A DNA stretch of 12,173 nt, from IMG/VR virus record IMGVR_UViG_3300028883_000031, positions 1-12,173 of that record. One strand, given 5' to 3'. The notes beneath the pieces are model-generated. The model was given only the letters and a program-made list of their open reading frames with translations, had not been told where the DNA came from and searched no databases. This DNA is from a virus. Both the position numbers and the translations under genes were made by a program. Below are positions 2,056-12,173 of this stretch, piece after piece (the first letter of the stretch is position 1; the number at the start of each line of letters is the position of its first letter).

Positions 2056-3459
2056 TTAAAAGTAATATATACTCATATTTATATGTTTCTGATTTGCTAA
2101 CCATGCTGCTCTTGTCAATCCTTCAACTAAATCTGTAAATTTATGTTGTGCAGCAAAGATTTTAACCATTGTTTTTCTACCTTCTTCTCTTGGATATTCA
2201 TACTGGATAGCTCTCAGACATTCTATTAATTCTTCGTCATCTAATAATTGAATTTTACCTTTTTCCATTAGAGCTATCAAATTATCATACAAATCTTCTT
2301 TCAAAATTCTTCTATATTTCTCATTTCTACTATCTAAAGATTTCTTCAGATTATTTATAGCAACTATCTTATGTCTTATTCCAGGTTCTTTAATTAACCA
2401 ATCAAAAATTCCAACTCCAAGACTACCAGAACCAGCATCTATTCCAATTTTACGGAAATCCCATATTGCATCCATCATTAAAATATGGTCGTAAGTTTGA
2501 GTTGTTAAAGTCTTTCTTGTGTATTGGCTTTCTCTCTGTGCTAATCTTCCTTGTGGAAGTCTCTCTATAACTTCATAAGTAGAGGCATCATCTCCCATTC
2601 TTGCTATATCAACACCCAAATAGTAATCTCTATCTGGTATTCTTTGAGTTCTCTTTAATACACAGCACTTCTTTATGATTCTATCTGAGAATAAACGTCT
2701 AAAGTCAGATACAAATTCCCCCAAGTATTCCTGTGCATATTGTAATTCAGACATTCTTGCTTTTTCTCTATCTTGATGAGCCAACATATTCGAACTTTGT
2801 GGCTCTTCTCTTTGTTTGGCAATATCTTCTGCATTGATGTGCCATGTCTTAAAGTCTTTGTCAAAGAATCTATCGTGAAAATATCCTTTATCTCCCATTG
2901 GTGTTGAGAGTAAAATTATCTTTCCGCCTGTTGTTGCTAACATTGGAGTAATGGCAGGCCAAACACTCTCTGGAATAAATGCAGCTTCGTCAGCTATTAA
3001 TAAATCAACAGTGTATCCTCGTATCCCAAGACCATCCAATCCAGTTGGCAAACATCTGATTATACTTCCATTGTTCAGCTTTATTTCTGTCTTTGTTGGT
3101 CTGTCTTTTCCTTTCTTTATCCATGTTCGGTAGTTGTCGTGTAAATATGTTAATACCTTTGAGAAAAGCAAATAAGCTTGACGCTCTGTTGCTGATATTA
3201 TCATTATGGATTGCTTTTTGTTTAGAGCTGCGAACTTTCCTGCTTTTCTTGCTATGATTGTCGATTTTCCTACTTGCCTTCCTGCTCGAAGTGCTATGTT
3301 TCCGTCGTAATCCTCTACTTCTCGCTGCCATCTGTCAAGGGTAATCTTATCAGATTCTTTAATTTGTCCTCTGACATCTTTAGAATCATCTCGTTGATTT
3401 CCTTCTCTGCTTGCATTTGCAGAATGGACTTCTCCGACTTTTCTTTTATTTGTTGCCAT
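2056..3459 (-). CDS. terL: Terminase large subunit
   Basis: 467-aa ORF with Walker A GRQVGKST, Walker B-like VDLLIADEAAF and coupling motif LLSTP. The C-terminal half has acidic RNase-H-like nuclease motifs (YLGVDIARMGDD, IGIDAGSG). Confidence 0.93.
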   Translation of the reverse strand: MATNKRKVGEVHSANASREGNQRDDSKDVRGQIKESDKITLDRWQREVEDYDGNIALRAGRQVGKSTIIARKAGKFAALNKKQSIMIISATERQAYLLFSKVLTYLHDNYRTWIKKGKDRPTKTEIKLNNGSIIRCLPTGLDGLGIRGYTVDLLIADEAAFIPESVWPAITPMLATTGGKIILLSTPMGDKGYFHDRFFDKDFKTWHINAEDIAKQREEPQSSNMLAHQDREKARMSELQYAQEYLGEFVSDFRRLFSDRIIKKCCVLKRTQRIPDRDYYLGVDIARMGDDASTYEVIERLPQGRLAQRESQYTRKTLTTQTYDHILMMDAIWDFRKIGIDAGSGSLGVGIFDWLIKEPGIRHKIVAINNLKKSLDSRNEKYRRILKEDLYDNLIALMEKGKIQLLDDEELIECLRAIQYEYPREEGRKTMVKIFAAQHKFTDLVEGLTRAAWLANQKHINMSIYYF

Positions 3460-3509
3460 AACTCTTCTTCTTGATTACCGATAACAATTTCGTTATTATT
3501 TTTTTCCAT
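3315..3509 (-). CDS. Hypothetical 64-aa acidic/coiled protein; first, leaderless ORF of the structural operon; overlaps the terL 5' end by 145 nt
   Basis: Its ATG at 3509 lies 19-21 nt from the palindromic TATA box 3529..3538. The ORF reads in a different frame from terL (start 3459). Coding status is uncertain. Confidence 0.4.
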   Translation of the reverse strand: MEKNNNEIVIGNQEEELWQQIKEKSEKSILQMQAEKEINEMILKMSEDKLKNLIRLPLTDGSEK

Positions 3510-3528
3510 AATAAAAAAAAGAAAAAAG

Positions 3529-3538
3529 TATTTAAATA
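3529..3538. promoter_or_regulatory. Palindromic TATA box TATTTAAATA, promoter of the terL/portal operon, possibly bidirectional
   Basis: Lies 19-21 nt upstream of ATG 3509, matching the spacing at five other operon starts. Confidence 0.6.
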
Positions 3539-3560
3539 ATTTGTGTTTTCTCTGTGTAGA

Positions 3561-3605
3561 GTTGAGGGGGTTTATACTTTTCCCTCCTCGACTTTTTTCT
3601 TTTTT
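3561..3605 (+). other. Imperfect 10-bp hairpin (3561..3570 / 3583..3592) followed by T6CT6; candidate small RNA or oligo-T terminator
   Basis: The stem contains two G-T pairs, which are tolerated only in a plus-strand RNA. The T-run at 3593..3605 follows immediately. The stem starts about 22 nt downstream of the TATA box at 3529..3538. Confidence 0.3.
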
Positions 3606-3757
3606 AAAATAATAAAAAAAAATTTAAAAAATTTCGTTGAGGGGTAAGCACTTTTTATAAACTACATTTTTGAACGTCGGGGTTATTTGTAGTGTATAAA
3701 TAGAAATTGATTTGCGAGTTAGCCGGTATACCGATTAACTACACTGCCTCTGCGCCT

Positions 3758-3835
3758 AATTGAATTAAGTCCGCTTTGTGAAGCGGATTGCCTCTATAGA
3801 GGCAACTTTGCCCACAGGCAAAGCTTAATTCAATT
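3758..3835. other. Perfect 78-nt four-way-junction (cloverleaf-like) element: 12-bp closing stem plus three 7-bp hairpins with 4-nt loops
   Basis: Closing stem is 3758..3769 / 3824..3835. The hairpins are 3770..3787 (loop TGTG), 3788..3805 (loop TATA) and 3806..3823 (loop CACA). All 33 pairs are Watson-Crick and no junction nucleotide is unpaired. Confidence 0.85.
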
Positions 3836-3849
3836 CCTCCTCATCCTCC

Positions 3850-3978
3850 TCCTTTACCTGTATGCGAACGCAATGTAACCGAAAATTATATATATTATGA
3901 AAACTTAGTTTGAGGAACTCAAACTAAATTCTTAAGATAAATAAAGATGCGAACGAATGTGAGCATACAGGTAAAGGA
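3850..3978. repeat. 16-bp perfect inverted repeat (3850..3865 / 3963..3978) enclosing a 10-bp hairpin (3905..3914 / 3918..3927) and a direct repeat ATGCGAACG(C)AATGT (3862..3876, 3947..3960)
   Basis: All pairs checked by hand. The enclosed segment also carries a TA-alternating stretch near 3885..3898. Confidence 0.85.
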
Positions 3979-3998
3979 ACTATAACCTCGCTCCGCTC

Positions 3999-4053
3999 GG
4001 TAAATATTGAACTGGTAAATATTGAACTGGTAAATATTGAACTGGTAAATACT
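3999..4053. repeat. Tandem 15-bp repeat GGTAAATATTGAACT, three perfect copies plus a partial copy (iteron-like)
   Basis: Copies at 3999..4013, 4014..4028 and 4029..4043, with a partial copy at 4044..4053. Confidence 0.9.
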
Positions 4054-4062
4054 AAATTATTA

Positions 4063-4089
4063 AGTAGTTATGAAAAAGTAGTTATGAAA
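4063..4089. repeat. Direct repeat AGTAGTTATGAAA, two copies with 14-bp period
   Basis: Copies at 4063..4075 and 4077..4089. Confidence 0.8.
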
Positions 4090-4165
4090 GTTTAAATAAA
4101 AGGGGTATTGTGTATTAGTAGAATATGAGTATTTTACCTGTTTGTATATCTCATGGAGGGGGAAT

Positions 4166-4291
4166 GTGTGTTCTCTCTCTGTAGGAATTTGAATTACCTT
4201 AGTTGGAATTCTATTATATTGGTTTCTTTCTTTCTTTTCTTTTTGGTTCTTTTTCTTTTCTTTCTTTCAATATGACAGAGAGAGAACACAC
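4166..4291. repeat. 17-bp perfect inverted repeat GTGTGTTCTCTCTCTGT / ACAGAGAGAGAACACAC flanking a 92-nt spacer
   Basis: Arms at 4166..4182 and 4275..4291, all pairs checked. The right arm ends 7 nt before the TATA box of the plus-strand gene. Confidence 0.9.
4226..4268. repeat. Perfect homopyrimidine mirror repeat (19 nt, 5-nt spacer, 19 nt), an H-DNA/triplex-type motif
   Basis: CTTTCTTTCTTTTCTTTTT at 4226..4244 read backwards equals TTTTTCTTTTCTTTCTTTC at 4250..4268. The spacer GGTTC is at 4245..4249. Confidence 0.85.
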
Positions 4292-4298
4292 CAAAACA

Positions 4299-4306
4299 TT
4301 TAAATA
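4299..4306 (+). promoter_or_regulatory. TATA box TTTAAATA with upstream A-rich BRE-like CAAAACA; promoter of the leaderless plus-strand gene
   Basis: Exactly 21 nt separate the box from ATG 4328. Confidence 0.65.
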
Positions 4307-4327
4307 GTTTAATGTTTTAGTTTTGAT

Positions 4328-4567
4328 ATGAATATTAATGCAATAAGAGCTGAAGAAAGACATAGAAAGATAGTAGAAATATTAGCTACTATAAAAAAAG
4401 CTTTTGAGAATGGCTTAGAATTGAATTTTGAAGCGTTGATTAATCAAGCATGCTTTCAGCAAAGAATAGCAAGAAGGACAGCCATGGAATACATAAACAT
4501 AGCATTAAGCCAAGTGGAACATAAAATAGAAGGAAAAGGAAAAAATAAATTAATAATTAAGATTTAA
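4328..4567 (+). CDS. Small winged-helix-turn-helix-like DNA-binding protein (79 aa), candidate regulator
   Basis: This is the only plus-strand gene and it is leaderless. It shows a helix-helix-helix pattern with a recognition-helix-like RIARRTAMEYINIAL, then a basic beta-hairpin-like tail KIEGKGKNKLIIKI. Assigned by eye only. Confidence 0.5.
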   Translation: MNINAIRAEERHRKIVEILATIKKAFENGLELNFEALINQACFQQRIARRTAMEYINIALSQVEHKIEGKGKNKLIIKI

Positions 4568-6570: not shown

Positions 6571-7398
6571 CTAAAACACCTCCTTCCAACTATCATCTAC
6601 ATTAACATAGGCATTGGCTACTTCTTTCCATGCATCATCTACATTAACATAGGCATTAGCTACTTCTTTAAAAGAATCATTAATATTTAAAGTGATGTTT
6701 GTTCCAGTTGGAAGAGGGTCAAAAGGATAGGCCCAACCATCACCACCATTATATAAACTATCTATATCAGCATCAGAAATCTCATCATCAAAAATTCCAA
6801 ACTCATCAAGGTAGCCATTAAAATAAGTAAAGTAAGGATGTCTGTCCCTTCCCATATATGAAATATCTGAACCAGTGGGTCTACTTCTATCATCCCCTAC
6901 ATAATGCCAACTAACACTCTTCTCACTTCCATCAATCCAAATCTGATAATTTCCTTCTCCGCCATCTCCACTACCTGTAACAACTACGTGATACCATGTT
7001 CCAGTAGATAAATTAGCATCTGTTGTAATGTATTGATTATTTGAACCTGGAGTTCCAACAGAAAAATAATATTCTATTTCATCTCCTACAATAGCAATGC
7101 TTTCTCTGACTGCTGTATTATCACTTCCTTTATAATAAATCATTGTTCCATCTCCAGCAGCTCCTAAATCATCAGTATTAAACCAAAAAGAATAACCTAC
7201 TGATGCAGTGAAAGCATCTGAACCAAAAGAAATATAATCAGAATTAGCAGATTCAAAATCATAACTATCATTAATAATTCCAGTTTCTCCATAAGTGCAA
7301 CCATTAACAGAACCATCTAAAGAACCTTCTGCATCAATTAAGTCTCCACTACTCTCGTCAAATTTATAGTAGTGAGTGCAGTCATCTATTAATGCCAT
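6571..7398 (-). CDS. LamG/concanavalin-A-like lectin domain protein (275 aa from internal Met), probable receptor-binding or fibre-associated protein
   Basis: Begins ALIDDCTHYYKFDESSGDLIDAEGSLDGSVNG. Contains GTWYHVVVTGSG, YQIWIDGSEK and FNGYLDEFGIFDDEISDADIDSLY, the Laminin_G_3-type pattern. The start is set at ATG 7398, just after the fibre stop (TAAAATG). Confidence 0.75.
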   Translation of the reverse strand: MALIDDCTHYYKFDESSGDLIDAEGSLDGSVNGCTYGETGIINDSYDFESANSDYISFGSDAFTASVGYSFWFNTDDLGAAGDGTMIYYKGSDNTAVRESIAIVGDEIEYYFSVGTPGSNNQYITTDANLSTGTWYHVVVTGSGDGGEGNYQIWIDGSEKSVSWHYVGDDRSRPTGSDISYMGRDRHPYFTYFNGYLDEFGIFDDEISDADIDSLYNGGDGWAYPFDPLPTGTNITLNINDSFKEVANAYVNVDDAWKEVANAYVNVDDSWKEVF

Positions 7399-7399
7399 T

Positions 7400-8146
7400 T
7401 TAAGCTGTGTATTTAAAATAGATTGTTCCTTGGTTATAAAGATTTGCTGGTCCAGGATTGTCCTCTGTTCCAACTAAAATATTTCTACAAATAGCAGCGC
7501 CGCTTGCATCATTATCAGATAAAGTTTTAATTGTAGCACCTGAAACAGCCGCACCAGAAAAATGACCTGTTGAAGTAATATTTGTTTGGGTTAGTGTCTC
7601 TCCATGAGGGTCAGTTGTATCTACAAAATGAGCAGCACCACTTGCTAAATCTGTGTTCCAACTTCCACTAAGAGATAAAGGCAAATAATCAGCAACAACA
7701 GAACCACTTAAAGCCAAGAAGATTGGGTCTGCTTCTGCTGTAATAAAGTTCCCACTTAATGCCAAAAACACTGGGTCTGTTTCTGTATAAGATGTTAAAA
7801 AATTTCCTGATAGTGCCAAAAATATAGGGTCTGTTTCAGCAGTGAGAAATCCCCCTGATAGTGCTAAGAAAACTGGGTCTGTCTCTGCTGTTAAAAATCC
7901 ACCTGACAAAGCTAAAAAGACTGGGTCTGTTTCAGTGTAAGAAGTAATATAACCAGAATCATTTGTTAATTGTGAAATATTATCGCCTGTTTGTAGAAAT
8001 GTAGCAGTAGAACCTTTTTTAGCAGCGTCTTTAATACCTGAAAAATTAGGAATTATAATTGGTTCTCCAGTAGATAACTCTATTAAATTATCTTTTGCCA
8101 CCATAGTTGCTTCACTTGGCCGCCTTCCACTTCTAAAGTTTCCCAT
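7400..8146 (-). CDS. Fibre/receptor-binding-type structural protein with five ETDP(V/I)FLALSG repeats
   Basis: 248-aa ORF with 16-18-aa repeats YTETDPVFLALSGGFLTA and variants. E-T-D-P-V-F repeats are familiar from tail-fibre proteins. It sits immediately upstream of the LamG gene. Confidence 0.6.
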   Translation of the reverse strand: MGNFRSGRRPSEATMVAKDNLIELSTGEPIIIPNFSGIKDAAKKGSTATFLQTGDNISQLTNDSGYITSYTETDPVFLALSGGFLTAETDPVFLALSGGFLTAETDPIFLALSGNFLTSYTETDPVFLALSGNFITAEADPIFLALSGSVVADYLPLSLSGSWNTDLASGAAHFVDTTDPHGETLTQTNITSTGHFSGAAVSGATIKTLSDNDASGAAICRNILVGTEDNPGPANLYNQGTIYFKYTA

Positions 8147-8333: not shown

Positions 8334-8408
8334 TTAGCTTTCAGAATCGCCAGTGATTTCTTCAACAATTTCTTTTTCAACTTCTTTAGTTTGTTCTTCT
8401 GTCATCAT
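8334..8408 (-). CDS. Possible 24-aa acidic peptide (MMTEEQTKEVEKEIVEEITGDSES)
   Basis: TAATG overlap with the capsid gene stop. Very short, so coding status is doubtful. Confidence 0.2.
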   Translation of the reverse strand: MMTEEQTKEVEKEIVEEITGDSES

Positions 8409-9271
8409 TAACATCCAGTAGTCATACACATAGCATTAGGGTCAGTTACAATAACTTCTCCATCTTCCCATACTCTAACCTTAACACCAATGCCAGGCTC
8501 TTCTTTAGTAATTGCAGTGATAGGTGTAAATGATTTCCATGTAGCACACCTTTGAGGAACTATTTGCATAATTATTCCAGTTGTAGCATTTGGACTTGAT
8601 ACTATTCTTTGCCCTGCTAAATTCATAATTACTCCATCTTGCACCTTCTGAGTTGCAAATCCAGGAACATAAGTTCCTTTTTGTGTTATAATCCAATCAA
8701 GTAATGCTTTCTTTTGGTTTGGATGCATTAACACCACCAAGTTAGAAGTATCATAATTTCGTTGTTCTATTAAATTAGCACCTGAAAGTAAATCTCTAAC
8801 TGGATTACATGACGCAATAGTATCCCAGTCAGCAGTAGCAGCACCACTTAAAGCAACTTGTCCACTTAATACATCGTAAATTCTATAATCAATTTGATTC
8901 TGAACAGCCCTTGTTAAATCTCTCACATTAATAGCCAGCATATCTAAATCACTATCTCTAATGTCTGCATAAGTAAACCATGGAGATTCAACTGAGAAAT
9001 GTTTAACATATGAAGTGTGTCTTGTTGCTGATTGTTCAGCAATAGGAGGCAAAGCACCAAAAGCAACTTTAGATATTTGAGATGCAGTTATTCCAGTTGT
9101 ATCAGTTGAATCTAATACACCTGATGTTTTCCTATACCATCTAATCTCACGAGCACTTGTAGGAGAGTTTGCTAAAAACTTCTTGAATATAAACATTTGG
9201 TCAGCATAACCTTTAGCTAATTTGTCTACATTCAATCCACGAAGGTCAGCTTGTCCTAATGTATCTGCCAT
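8408..9271 (-). CDS. Major capsid protein, HK97 fold
   Basis: 287-aa ORF directly downstream of a DUF2190-like gene, with a scaffold-like gene further upstream. It has a long helix-like segment INVRDLTRAVQNQIDYRIYDVL and overall resembles phage major capsid proteins. Assigned by eye. Confidence 0.8.
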   Translation of the reverse strand: MADTLGQADLRGLNVDKLAKGYADQMFIFKKFLANSPTSAREIRWYRKTSGVLDSTDTTGITASQISKVAFGALPPIAEQSATRHTSYVKHFSVESPWFTYADIRDSDLDMLAINVRDLTRAVQNQIDYRIYDVLSGQVALSGAATADWDTIASCNPVRDLLSGANLIEQRNYDTSNLVVLMHPNQKKALLDWIITQKGTYVPGFATQKVQDGVIMNLAGQRIVSSPNATTGIIMQIVPQRCATWKSFTPITAITKEEPGIGVKVRVWEDGEVIVTDPNAMCMTTGC

Positions 9272-11965: not shown

Positions 11966-12173
11966 TCTGTTCGTTGTATATTTAATTCTGATTCGTTAGG
12001 TTGAAAACCTACTTGTCCTTGGTTCTTTTGTTCTTCTTCTTGCATCATTCCACTTAAACTTGGTGGTCTATTAAACTTTACTCTTATTGCTAATTGATTC
12101 CAAATGTCTTGTTCTAATAAAGTCTGCTCTTCAACATACACTGGTTCAAAAGTCATATAACCCACTTTAGATG
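11962..12173 (-). CDS. Portal protein, C-terminal segment; 12047..12173 duplicates 1..127, and unique sequence 11962..12046 carries the stop
   Basis: The 67-aa track ORF (M)GYMTFEPVYVEEQ... matches the in-frame continuation of the ORF leaving position 1. Its apparent M is a GTG inside the portal frame. Confidence 0.8.
   Translation of the reverse strand, partial: SKVGYMTFEPVYVEEQTLLEQDIWNQLAIRVKFNRPPSLSGMMQEEEQKNQGQVGFQPNESELNIQRTE
12047..12173. repeat. Terminal overlap copy 2, identical to 1..127
   Basis: Same comparison as for 1..127. Confidence 0.97.

Follow-up and report, generated by a model that had tools for sequence, protein, structure and literature searches.

Why should a virus keep, just upstream of a promoter, a sequence followed by its own exact reversal on the same strand? 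This question is raised by a 126-bp module (4166-4291) in the window, by which we mean the whole stretch of 12,173 nt analysed here (IMG/VR virus record IMGVR_UViG_3300028883_000031). The module lies upstream of the TATA box of P2, the promoter of a gene called p79, and it nests two symmetries: an inverted repeat on the outside and a homopyrimidine mirror repeat on the inside. An earlier note on this DNA had proposed that the element is a switch for the adjacent gene, and had named the loss of mirror and arms among relatives as what would speak against the idea. We found the opposite, since both are preserved in relatives through compensated changes. Our tentative reading, to which we give a little less than an even chance, is that the module is a selected triplex-capable hinge or switch, of the type of intramolecular triplex DNA (H-DNA), in the control region upstream of P2. 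Its parts, with the promoter and the gene that follow, are listed below.

4166 to 4182, plus strand: left arm GTGTGTTCTCTCTCTGT, that is (GT)3 T (CT)4 GT, read directly and also returned by the repeat finder
4199 to 4212, plus strand: conserved asymmetric box TTAGTTGGAATTCT, consensus TTAGTYGGnRRTCT, candidate protein-binding site
4223 to 4244, plus strand: homopyrimidine tract A, with the mirror arm CTTTCTTTCTTTTCTTTTT at 4226-4244
4245 to 4249, plus strand: spacer GGTTC at the mirror centre, predicted loop of the triplex
4247 to 4268, plus strand: homopyrimidine tract B, with the mirror arm 4250-4268, the exact reverse of 4226-4244
4275 to 4291, plus strand: right arm ACAGAGAGAGAACACAC, complementary to 4166-4182 at 17/17 positions
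4292 to 4306, plus strand: promoter P2 of p79, with the sequence CAAAACA, similar to a transcription factor B recognition element (BRE), and the TATA box TTTAAATA (4299-4306)
4328 to 4567, plus strand: p79, a predicted 79-aa three-helix protein similar to helix-turn-helix (HTH) proteins

The arms of the inverted repeat are 92 nt apart, and the right one starts 6 nt past the end of tract B. The mirror arms are 100% pyrimidine on the plus strand and T-rich (about 80% T and 20% C), and the tract is 78% A+T. With 19/19 mirrored positions, a spacer of 5 nt and a purity of at least 0.9, they fall within the sequence definition of an H-DNA motif, for which the defaults of an H-DNA finder are an arm of at least 8, a spacer of at most 10 and a purity of at least 0.9 (PMC13404959); H-DNA motif definitions are also given in PMC9171763. 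The earlier note was accurate on all these points of anatomy: the perfect 17-bp inverted repeat, the perfect 19-nt homopyrimidine mirror, its agreement with the classical sequence requirement for H-DNA, and the TATA box 7 nt past the right arm.

Both repeats exceed what the window yields by chance. When the window was randomised 1000 times under a first-order Markov model, no run gave an inverted repeat of 16 nt or more with a loop of up to 200 nt (17 nt observed), and none gave a mirror repeat longer than 15 nt (19 nt observed). Shuffling the bases inside the tracts of the window results in p ~0.0006 for the mirror, and permuting the T-run blocks only in p ~0.05. The module is present once per genome, and the segment 4226-4268 is the genome's only long homopyrimidine mirror repeat, as a check proposed in the note was meant to establish; the window has just one other perfect mirror of at least 12 nt, which is 13 nt long and of mixed sequence (8354-8390). 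Four of the five perfect inverted repeats of at least 12 nt (loop up to 200 nt) are concentrated in the intergenic region 3510-4327 (820 bp). Outside the window, an exact search of IMG/VR for the 17-mer arm gave 14 matches, all of them in unrelated contexts that lack the module. The centre pattern (14 nt) matched 70 times in 185,579 cellular genomes, with short tracts in every case: long mirrored tracts were found at none of these 70 sites, and the scan gave no clue to the host, the sole Promethearchaeota match not being a module. Separately, the centre pattern TTTTGATTACTTTT is repeated across many Gastranaerophilales genomes (L091, L094, L098, L111, L113 and contigs of other Gastranaerophilales/Melainabacteria metagenome-assembled genomes; L numbers denote loci throughout). 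These copies have identical short flanks, pyrimidine runs of 13 and 12 nt and a mirror of 10 nt, as might be expected of a dispersed repeat family.

The module occurs in 19 distinct viral sequences, the window included. Eleven of these modules were reached through protein homology and independently of any DNA pattern (the window, L004, L056, L061, L062, L065, L067, L069, L070, L071 and L072), with L072 and L004 added by a generic scan of the fetched loci. The other eight come from a pattern scan (L075, L076, L077, L080, L082, L084, L085 and L086); the exact scan of IMG/VR for YYYYYYTTTTGATTACTTTTYYYYYY returned 16 loci, half of them with the architecture of the module. The order of the parts is constant: left arm, about 20-40 nt that include the box, pyrimidine tract, spacer, pyrimidine tract, right arm and TATA box. 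Near-identical strains of the window (L029 and L057-L060) have an identical module and are hence uninformative, while tandem repeats vary among them: L029 has 1.5 copies of a 15-nt repeat that is present in 3.5 copies in the window, and the number of TCC repeats also varies. L056, whose p79 homologue is 68% identical, has a module of 125 nt (126 in the window) in which the arms match at 15/18 positions and GATTAC separates the two pyrimidine tracts; outside the module its intergenic DNA bears no relation to that of the window. The module is indeed the only piece of the large intergenic region that relatives have in common. The more distant L002 and L063 keep a GT-rich inverted repeat by the TATA box and lack the pyrimidine mirror. 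A separate phage group in IMG/VR (L074, L083, L087, L088 and L089) has a perfect 12-nt mirror, TTTCTTTTTTTT GATTAC TTTTTTTTCTTT, upstream of a TTGACA-type promoter-like sequence that is followed by a 69-aa open reading frame (ORF) and a 125-aa HTH-like protein. The latter is possibly a small terminase, as read from its sequence rather than from a family search, and the mirror itself may be due to chance or be a bacterial-phage analogue.

Across the modules it is the symmetry of the core that is kept, through changes on both sides of the centre. The tracts are strictly homopyrimidine on the coding strand over 40-60 bp in all 19 modules, and the lengths of their T-runs are 3,3,4,5|5,4,3,3 in the window, 1,1,3,2,4,4|4,4,2,3,1,1 in L061 and 3,2,1,4|4,1,2,3 in L062. 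The mirror of L061 is perfect over 20 nt, with a sequence different from that of the window, and other perfect mirrors have 18 nt (L062), 19 nt (L070), 21 nt (L085), 22 nt (L082) and 23 nt (L072). The match is 30/31 in L065, 25/27 in L069 and 13/14 in L004; the last shares the spacer GGTTC with the window, whereas most relatives have GATTAC or GGTTAC, the spacer length being 5-8 nt. Mirror identity within modules is on average 0.954, compared with 0.82 between modules. The best match of a tract is its own partner in 14 of 17 modules, and the longest match between the two tracts is longer in mirror than in direct orientation in 12 of 17, with ties in three.

The arms also vary from virus to virus while keeping their complementarity. 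They are simple dinucleotide runs of (GT)n, (CT)n or (AT)n, the latter in L070, and a significant inverted repeat surrounds the core in 13 of the 16 modules tested, with different sequences. L062 has a perfect 17-nt inverted repeat in which both arms have changed relative to the window, and in L069 the outer arm GTGTG/CACAC has become TTTTG/CAAAA on both sides. The most constant portion is the outer TGTGTT/AACACA. The centres of the arms are 94-116 bp apart, with 70-117 nt between arms in relatives. Mismatches in the arms include 10 G-T on the plus strand, 3 A-C and 11 others, a wobble bias (~p=0.05, one-sided) that is not significant and gives a weak hint of pairing on the plus strand. In an alignment of 14 modules with MAFFT, the box (4199-4212) is the sole part of the module interior that is kept in sequence rather than in symmetry, and it is the best candidate for a protein site within the module. 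The note had passed over this box. We know of no replication or recombination process that makes reversed, uncomplemented copies, and for this reason selection appears to be the simplest explanation for the maintenance of the mirror.

The module is also tied in position to P2. The first base of the TATA box lies 29 nt before the ATG of p79 (4328), and the same distance is found in L061, L065, L069, L071, L063, L075 and L085 and, by hand count, in L056 and L082; it is 27-32 nt in L067, L070 and L077, and 33 nt by hand count in L062. In the relatives checked the right arm is at most ~16 nt from the TATA box, which in most relatives is preceded by a BRE-like CAAAA. Positions 4292-4306 thus combine the placement of the TATA box and the upstream BRE-like element of an archaeal promoter. 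TATA-like words are not significantly enriched in the AT-rich genome of the window, and the promoter calls therefore rely on conserved position; a scan for sigma-70 promoters and terminators gave background levels. Archaeal TATA boxes are centred near -26 from the transcription start. Together with the 29 nt to the ATG, this places the predicted start of transcription at the ATG itself and implies a leaderless p79 mRNA. Two further promoter-like sequences are relevant here.

4087 to 4098, plus strand: P1-like BRE/TATA-like box GAAAGTTTAAATA, with a copy of TTTAAATA at 4091-4098, possible second promoter into the module
3531 to 3555, minus strand: divergent promoter, with TATA at 3531-3538, of the ~11-kb minus-strand unit (a small ORF, then the large terminase gene, TerL)

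In L004, L062 and L070 a near-identical GAAAAGTATTTAAAGA precedes the module by 55-105 nt, and P1 would point toward the module, judging from its purine-rich side. The note had offered as an alternative that transcription from 4091-4098 produces a long structured leader. We regard this as unlikely, as in archaea T-runs such as the T5-T9 of the coding strand signal termination, and a leader leaves the mirror symmetry unexplained. The divergent promoter also has an arm copy, a partial third one (ACAGAGAAAACACA), immediately before its TATA box; relative to the gene, this copy is oriented as the arm at P2 is. The arm pattern has four overlapping matches at two sites, which are the two promoters, where 0.04 are expected by chance. 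The TATA box of the TerL unit is itself bracketed, together with a G+C-rich hairpin followed by T-runs, by a 15-nt inverted repeat AAAAAAGAAAAAAGT / ACTTTTTTCTTTTTT (3514-3529 / 3590-3605), whose equivalent in L002 has 14 nt with 66 nt between the arms. In the distant L009 group an arm-like AGAGAACACACA is placed between the TATA box and the start codon at at least 3 promoters (positions 2229-2251, 2386-2405, 2993-3010 and 7600-7629 of L009, and 3840-3862 of L012), which suggests that it is a promoter-proximal element shared across this virus assemblage.

What does the promoter serve? As the note had it, p79 stands alone on the plus strand, in that it is the sole plus-strand ORF shown to have homologues. 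The assignment of its product to the winged HTH proteins is weaker. The AlphaFold2 model (predicted local distance difference test score, pLDDT, of 79) has three helices and a disordered tail, and the top matches are to the winged-helix domain of KAT6A, with E=0.6 for the best Foldseek match and E=0.048 for the best named match of a family-profile search of PDB sequences. The protein itself had no match in Pfam, PHROG or PDB sequences. An HTH-like DNA-binding protein is a reasonable but weak prediction. An exhaustive HMMER search gave a p79 family of 39 cluster representatives of 63-156 aa, with a conserved helix (A/S)RRTAxEY(L/I)xxAL. The recognition helix is the same in viruses with (CT)n and with (AT)n arms, which makes a base-by-base reading of the inner arms by p79 improbable; sequence-specific reading of arms that switch from (CT)n to (AT)n or (GT)n is a disfavoured arrangement.

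The label of regulator gene given in the note is too narrow: in most relatives the gene is the first of a terminase (packaging) operon. In L056, L063/64, L065, L075, L076, L077, L082, L085 and L004, the module is followed by a gene for a small DNA-binding protein, one to three small ORFs and TerL. The small ORFs are HNH-like in L056 and L009, Hjc-like in L082 and L004, and several are unassigned. The GT-type arms and the box accompany the p79 family. In L004, L076 and L084 the first downstream gene encodes instead a protein with a ribbon-helix-helix (RHH) and a zinc ribbon that is not homologous to p79, and the mirror core is kept, so the core remains in front of the operon regardless of which DNA-binding protein comes next. 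In the window, L070 and L002, module and p79 together have the opposite orientation to TerL.

How could mirror symmetry be of use? A protein with twofold symmetry recognises inverted repeats, not mirror repeats. A protein that reads the pattern of AT and GC pairs is an insufficient explanation, because it needs no purity of pyrimidines on a single strand. Strand purity, mirror symmetry and a spacer of 5-8 nt together are the rule for a pyrimidine-purine-pyrimidine triplex, and this is why we favour a triplex, in which a high T content minimises the need for cytosine protonation. We propose that the mirror core has been kept by selection for such a triplex, likeliest in the form of intramolecular H-DNA. 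Negative superhelical stress, e.g., from the two divergent transcription units, would drive the pyrimidine half-strand to fold back at the spacer. The resulting kink would place the left arm and the box, along with any protein on them, beside the right arm and the BRE/TATA. The hinge would also absorb supercoils generated by transcription, and the output of P2 would be coupled to DNA topology and to a factor on the box. P2 would in most relatives drive the whole terminase operon. Other arrangements of the same parts were discarded. The arms are too distant for an ordinary cruciform (92 nt here and 70-117 nt in relatives), the distances between arm centres (94-116 bp) are not whole helical turns as looping with strict helical phasing would have them, and a pyrimidine clamp acting in trans is excluded by a genome that has no purine tract elsewhere to serve as its target.

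Several points weigh against this proposal. In the eight pattern-derived modules the TTTT-GATTAC-TTTT and its pyrimidine flanks were fixed by the search pattern, and the module sequences are related and so not fully independent. The mirror is imperfect in L056 and L067 (0.78 and 0.72), the latter module being truncated by the contig end, and it is trivial in (TTTC)n-like tracts (L071, which carries (CTTT)5, and partly L072). The block-shuffle p-values of single modules are modest (0.001-0.2). The argument for triplex formation comes from the symmetry of the sequence, and a triplex of this type would need negative supercoiling and protonated cytosine, at about 20% C here. H-DNA alone also fails to explain why the flanking arms are complementary, the T-runs of the coding strand can serve as archaeal terminators as well, and a site just upstream of a terminase operon is where packaging sites lie.

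The last of these points leads to a packaging recognition site (pac or cos), which we consider unlikely overall but worth serious weight. The terminase complex would recognise the module and perhaps cut at it, with p79 or the RHH protein acting as a small-terminase-like subunit bound to the box and arms, the mirror centre being the point at which the DNA folds. This is where a terS-terL pair is classically placed, as the module heads the TerL-containing operon in at least 9 relatives. It is besides the only intergenic part that relatives share, and the 12-kb genome has no other terS candidate. But the fixed 29 nt between TATA box and start codon indicate that a promoter function is at least present, and p79 is very small and matches no terminase family. 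The contigs show no preference for ending at the module, the assembly being circular with arbitrary break points, and no packaging mechanism is known to require mirror symmetry.

Somewhat further down in plausibility, and rather doubtful in our view, is an element that acts at the level of RNA, of which three versions can be distinguished. Version (a) has the T-rich tracts act simply as intrinsic archaeal terminators, which would keep transcription from upstream out of P2. In version (b), a read-through RNA forms a long hairpin closed by the arms. Version (c) invokes a short RNA from P1: the part copied from tract A would join the duplex of tract B as a parallel third strand, and the part copied from the left arm, which is exactly complementary to the plus strand of the right arm, would pair with the right-arm DNA at P2. 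The P1-like BRE/TATA upstream of the module in the window, L004, L062 and L070 would provide the RNA, the T5-T9 runs are confined to the coding strand in a fixed orientation, and RNA folding closes the 17-bp stem (z = -2.7). The 10 G-T mismatches, against 3 A-C and 11 others, point the same way with a bias that falls short of significance. On the other side, the element has no match in Rfam, and versions (a) and (b) leave the mirror symmetry unexplained. Version (c) accounts for mirror symmetry, arm complementarity and orientation together, but the unmirrored T7-T9 at the 5' edge of tract A (L056, L062, L069, L080 and L085) should stop most P1 transcripts, a difficulty that (b) shares. The specific proposal that a P1 transcript clamps the DNA upstream of the BRE/TATA through an RNA-DNA triplex and a short hybrid, and so sets the activity of the p79/terminase promoter, is a long shot that we would keep in mind; if true, the clamp RNA would be a triplex-based riboregulator in an archaeal virus.

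We give about as little credit to the core of a replication origin, with the inverted arms as initiator sites around an easily unwound pyrimidine tract of 78% A+T. The 12-kb genome has one large non-coding region, where the origin must therefore lie, and no recognisable replication protein. Tandem repeats of 15 nt (x3.5, variable among strains) and 14 nt (x2) stand just upstream, and the arms are inverted with 94-116 bp between their centres. Yet an unwinding element requires neither homopyrimidine purity nor mirror symmetry, the arms vary between viruses and match no known consensus of origin recognition boxes (ORB), and the fixed orientation and tight spacing to the TATA box favour coupling to a promoter. 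The GC skew of the window is of no help to the idea, since it merely follows gene orientation.

Shape could matter without a triplex if a symmetric dimeric architectural protein, histone-like or another minor-groove binder, read the module. A homopyrimidine mirror repeat is, by reasoning, a palindrome in the weak/strong (W/S) alphabet, and the conserved spacer GATTAC/GGTTAC suggests that something reads the centre. Such a reader would need no pyrimidines on one strand across 40-60 bp, the purity seen in all 19 modules, and no candidate protein is known, which makes it improbable to us. A coincidence of low-complexity sequence, or a decaying miniature inverted-repeat transposable element (MITE) with terminal inverted repeats, would fit arms and tracts made of simple sequence and a 17-mer arm that occurs alone in unrelated viral contigs, but it is very improbable given the randomisations, of which 0/1000 reach the observed repeats, the one genomic position in 19 sequences with compensated changes, the single copy per genome and the flanks GGGGGAAT / CAAAACAT, which show no target-site duplication.

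The genome around the module is that of an archaeal-type tailed virus, unusually small for one that encodes TerL and a capsid protein of HK97 type. Positions 1-127 of the window are identical to its last 127 nt (12047-12173), and a second assembly (L059, 12,172 nt) is a rotated copy, which together indicate that the window is a complete circular assembly of ~12,046 bp. The large terminase (2056-3459, Pfam Terminase_6N) has its best database relative in Halogranum tailed virus 1, a haloarchaeal tailed virus, at 30% identity, and the HK97-type capsid protein (8408-9271) belongs to Phage_capsid_4. Neither the window DNA (megablast) nor the capsid protein had a match in 50,697 phage records. No replication protein, integrase, orc1/cdc6 or rep gene was recognised in the genome, and the whole window has no tRNA and no Rfam family at E<=1. 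All genes except p79 are on the minus strand, in one ~11-kb unit that starts at the TATA box 3531-3538 and ends at 4564, tail to tail with p79. Near its start, a 64-codon ORF (3315-3509, minus strand) overlaps in another frame the first 145 nt of the TerL ORF (start 3459) and has a 33%-identical counterpart at the same position in L002; either this is a real overlapping gene or TerL starts further downstream. Tandem repeats within coding sequence are found at 7806-7935 (a 48-nt unit x2.7, with TETDPVFLALSGGFL repeats in a 248-aa protein) and at 6592-6680 (a 42-nt unit x2.1, at the C-terminus of a Laminin_G_3 protein), and are typical of fibre or receptor-binding proteins.

The sole sizeable non-coding region (3510-4327) contains inverted repeats, the tandem 15-nt and 14-nt repeats and the module. 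The tandem repeats, GGTAAATATTGAACT x3.5 (3999-4051) and AAGTAGTTATGAAA x2 (4062-4089), resemble iterons, and a replication origin or a regulator array may be located there. A cloverleaf-like element (3750-3835) has a 12-bp stem AATTGAATTAAG / CTTAATTCAATT around three 7-bp hairpins with 4-nt loops TGTG, TATA and CACA, of which one loop base differs in L029 (CACA to CGCA). A second perfect inverted repeat of 16 nt (3850-3865 / 3963-3978), with arms 97 nt apart and a geometry close to that of the module arms, encloses an internal palindrome (3889-3943). Its equivalent in L002 has 23-nt arms of different sequence, 101 nt apart, and an internal hairpin, and the two have GAACGCA in common just inside the left arm. 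The motif TTGAACGTCGG is common to the window (3668-3682), L002 (4709) and L040 (177) in otherwise divergent intergenic DNA, and it is followed by a hairpin-like element GCGAGTTA...CGGTATA, also in L002. A hairpin that the window lacks is found in GC-rich intergenic DNA of three relatives, with the loop TGGGCTRCCT conserved and the stem covarying between AGGCCTG, GCCTG and GAGCTG (L056 3519-3541, L063 125-150 and L009 2742-2762).

The selected function of H-DNA and other triplexes has been debated since the 1980s, with evidence mostly from enrichment statistics, probing in vitro and instability phenotypes. The module brings to this debate a single-copy element of ~126 bp whose mirror symmetry is kept through many independent changes across a virus family, and thereby makes the question directly testable. 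The argument from compensated changes is of the kind that established RNA secondary structures. Even without the RNA clamp, this would be the first comparative (covariation-type) evidence for selection on triple-helix potential. The arms, box, mirror core, GATTAC-like centre and TATA box make up a previously undescribed control region, which heads the packaging operon in an uncharacterised group of tailed viruses of archaeal type with very small genomes (~12 kb), and the predicted small HTH-like proteins of the p79 type form a new family associated with it.

How does the module compare with known systems? Archaeal origins have inverted ORB elements around an A/T-rich unwinding element, usually next to orc1/cdc6, and iteron plasmids are laid out as iterons, AT-rich region, operator and initiator gene. 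The module resembles them in its arms flanking an AT-rich core, the tandem repeats nearby and the adjacent gene for a predicted DNA-binding protein. It differs in lacking an ORB consensus, in a genome without an Orc1 or Rep gene, and unwinding elements are characterised neither by mirror symmetry nor by strand purity. The RNA made from the minor promoter of DHFR, a non-coding RNA, forms an RNA-DNA triplex on the major promoter. Here too a possible upstream promoter is directed toward a purine-pyrimidine tract beside the main promoter, and the RNA of tract A is predicted to be a perfect parallel third strand for duplex tract B; but the T7-T9 runs may end transcription before tract A, the machinery is archaeal and the RNA is putative.

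In phage lambda, gpNu1 binds at cosB to the inverted sites R3 and R2, which flank a bend induced by IHF, next to the small terminase gene, and the looping of pacL and pacR in SPP1 is a related packaging arrangement. The module shares with these two inverted sites ~100 bp apart, a sharp fold expected between them, a place upstream of packaging genes and a first gene that encodes a small HTH or winged HTH protein (predicted in the case of p79). The fold of the module would be intrinsic to the DNA, as a triplex, and not induced by a protein; a TATA promoter lies between the site and the gene, and p79 matches no terminase family.

On the non-B motifs of prokaryotes there are general surveys, and bacterial motifs that form intrastrand triplexes have been described (PMC4060949, PMC4666352). 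The latter have a database, ITxF, and the motif studied in PMC4666352 is G/C-rich, present in many copies per genome and linked to genome instability. Like the module, these motifs are conserved triplex-capable simple repeats in prokaryote-type genomes, whereas the module has one copy, is a mirror repeat of duplex DNA and keeps a fixed regulatory position. Our literature searches found nothing on this element or on covariation-type support for H-DNA.

The nuclease-sensitive CT element of the human c-MYC gene is an H-DNA-forming mirror repeat upstream of a promoter. Like the module, it lies just upstream of its promoter and has mirror symmetry around a short spacer, with all pyrimidines of the tract on one strand, and in both a dependence on negative supercoiling is expected. 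The module, in contrast, is viral, from a host of archaeal type, and its tracts are T-rich (~80% T) instead of C/G-rich. Its mirror core is enclosed by a covarying inverted repeat and accompanied by a conserved box, and its symmetry is backed by compensated change across lineages, which to our knowledge has not been reported for any H-DNA motif. By this comparison, the module would be an H-DNA-type element upstream of a promoter, in a new composite form that has evolutionary support.

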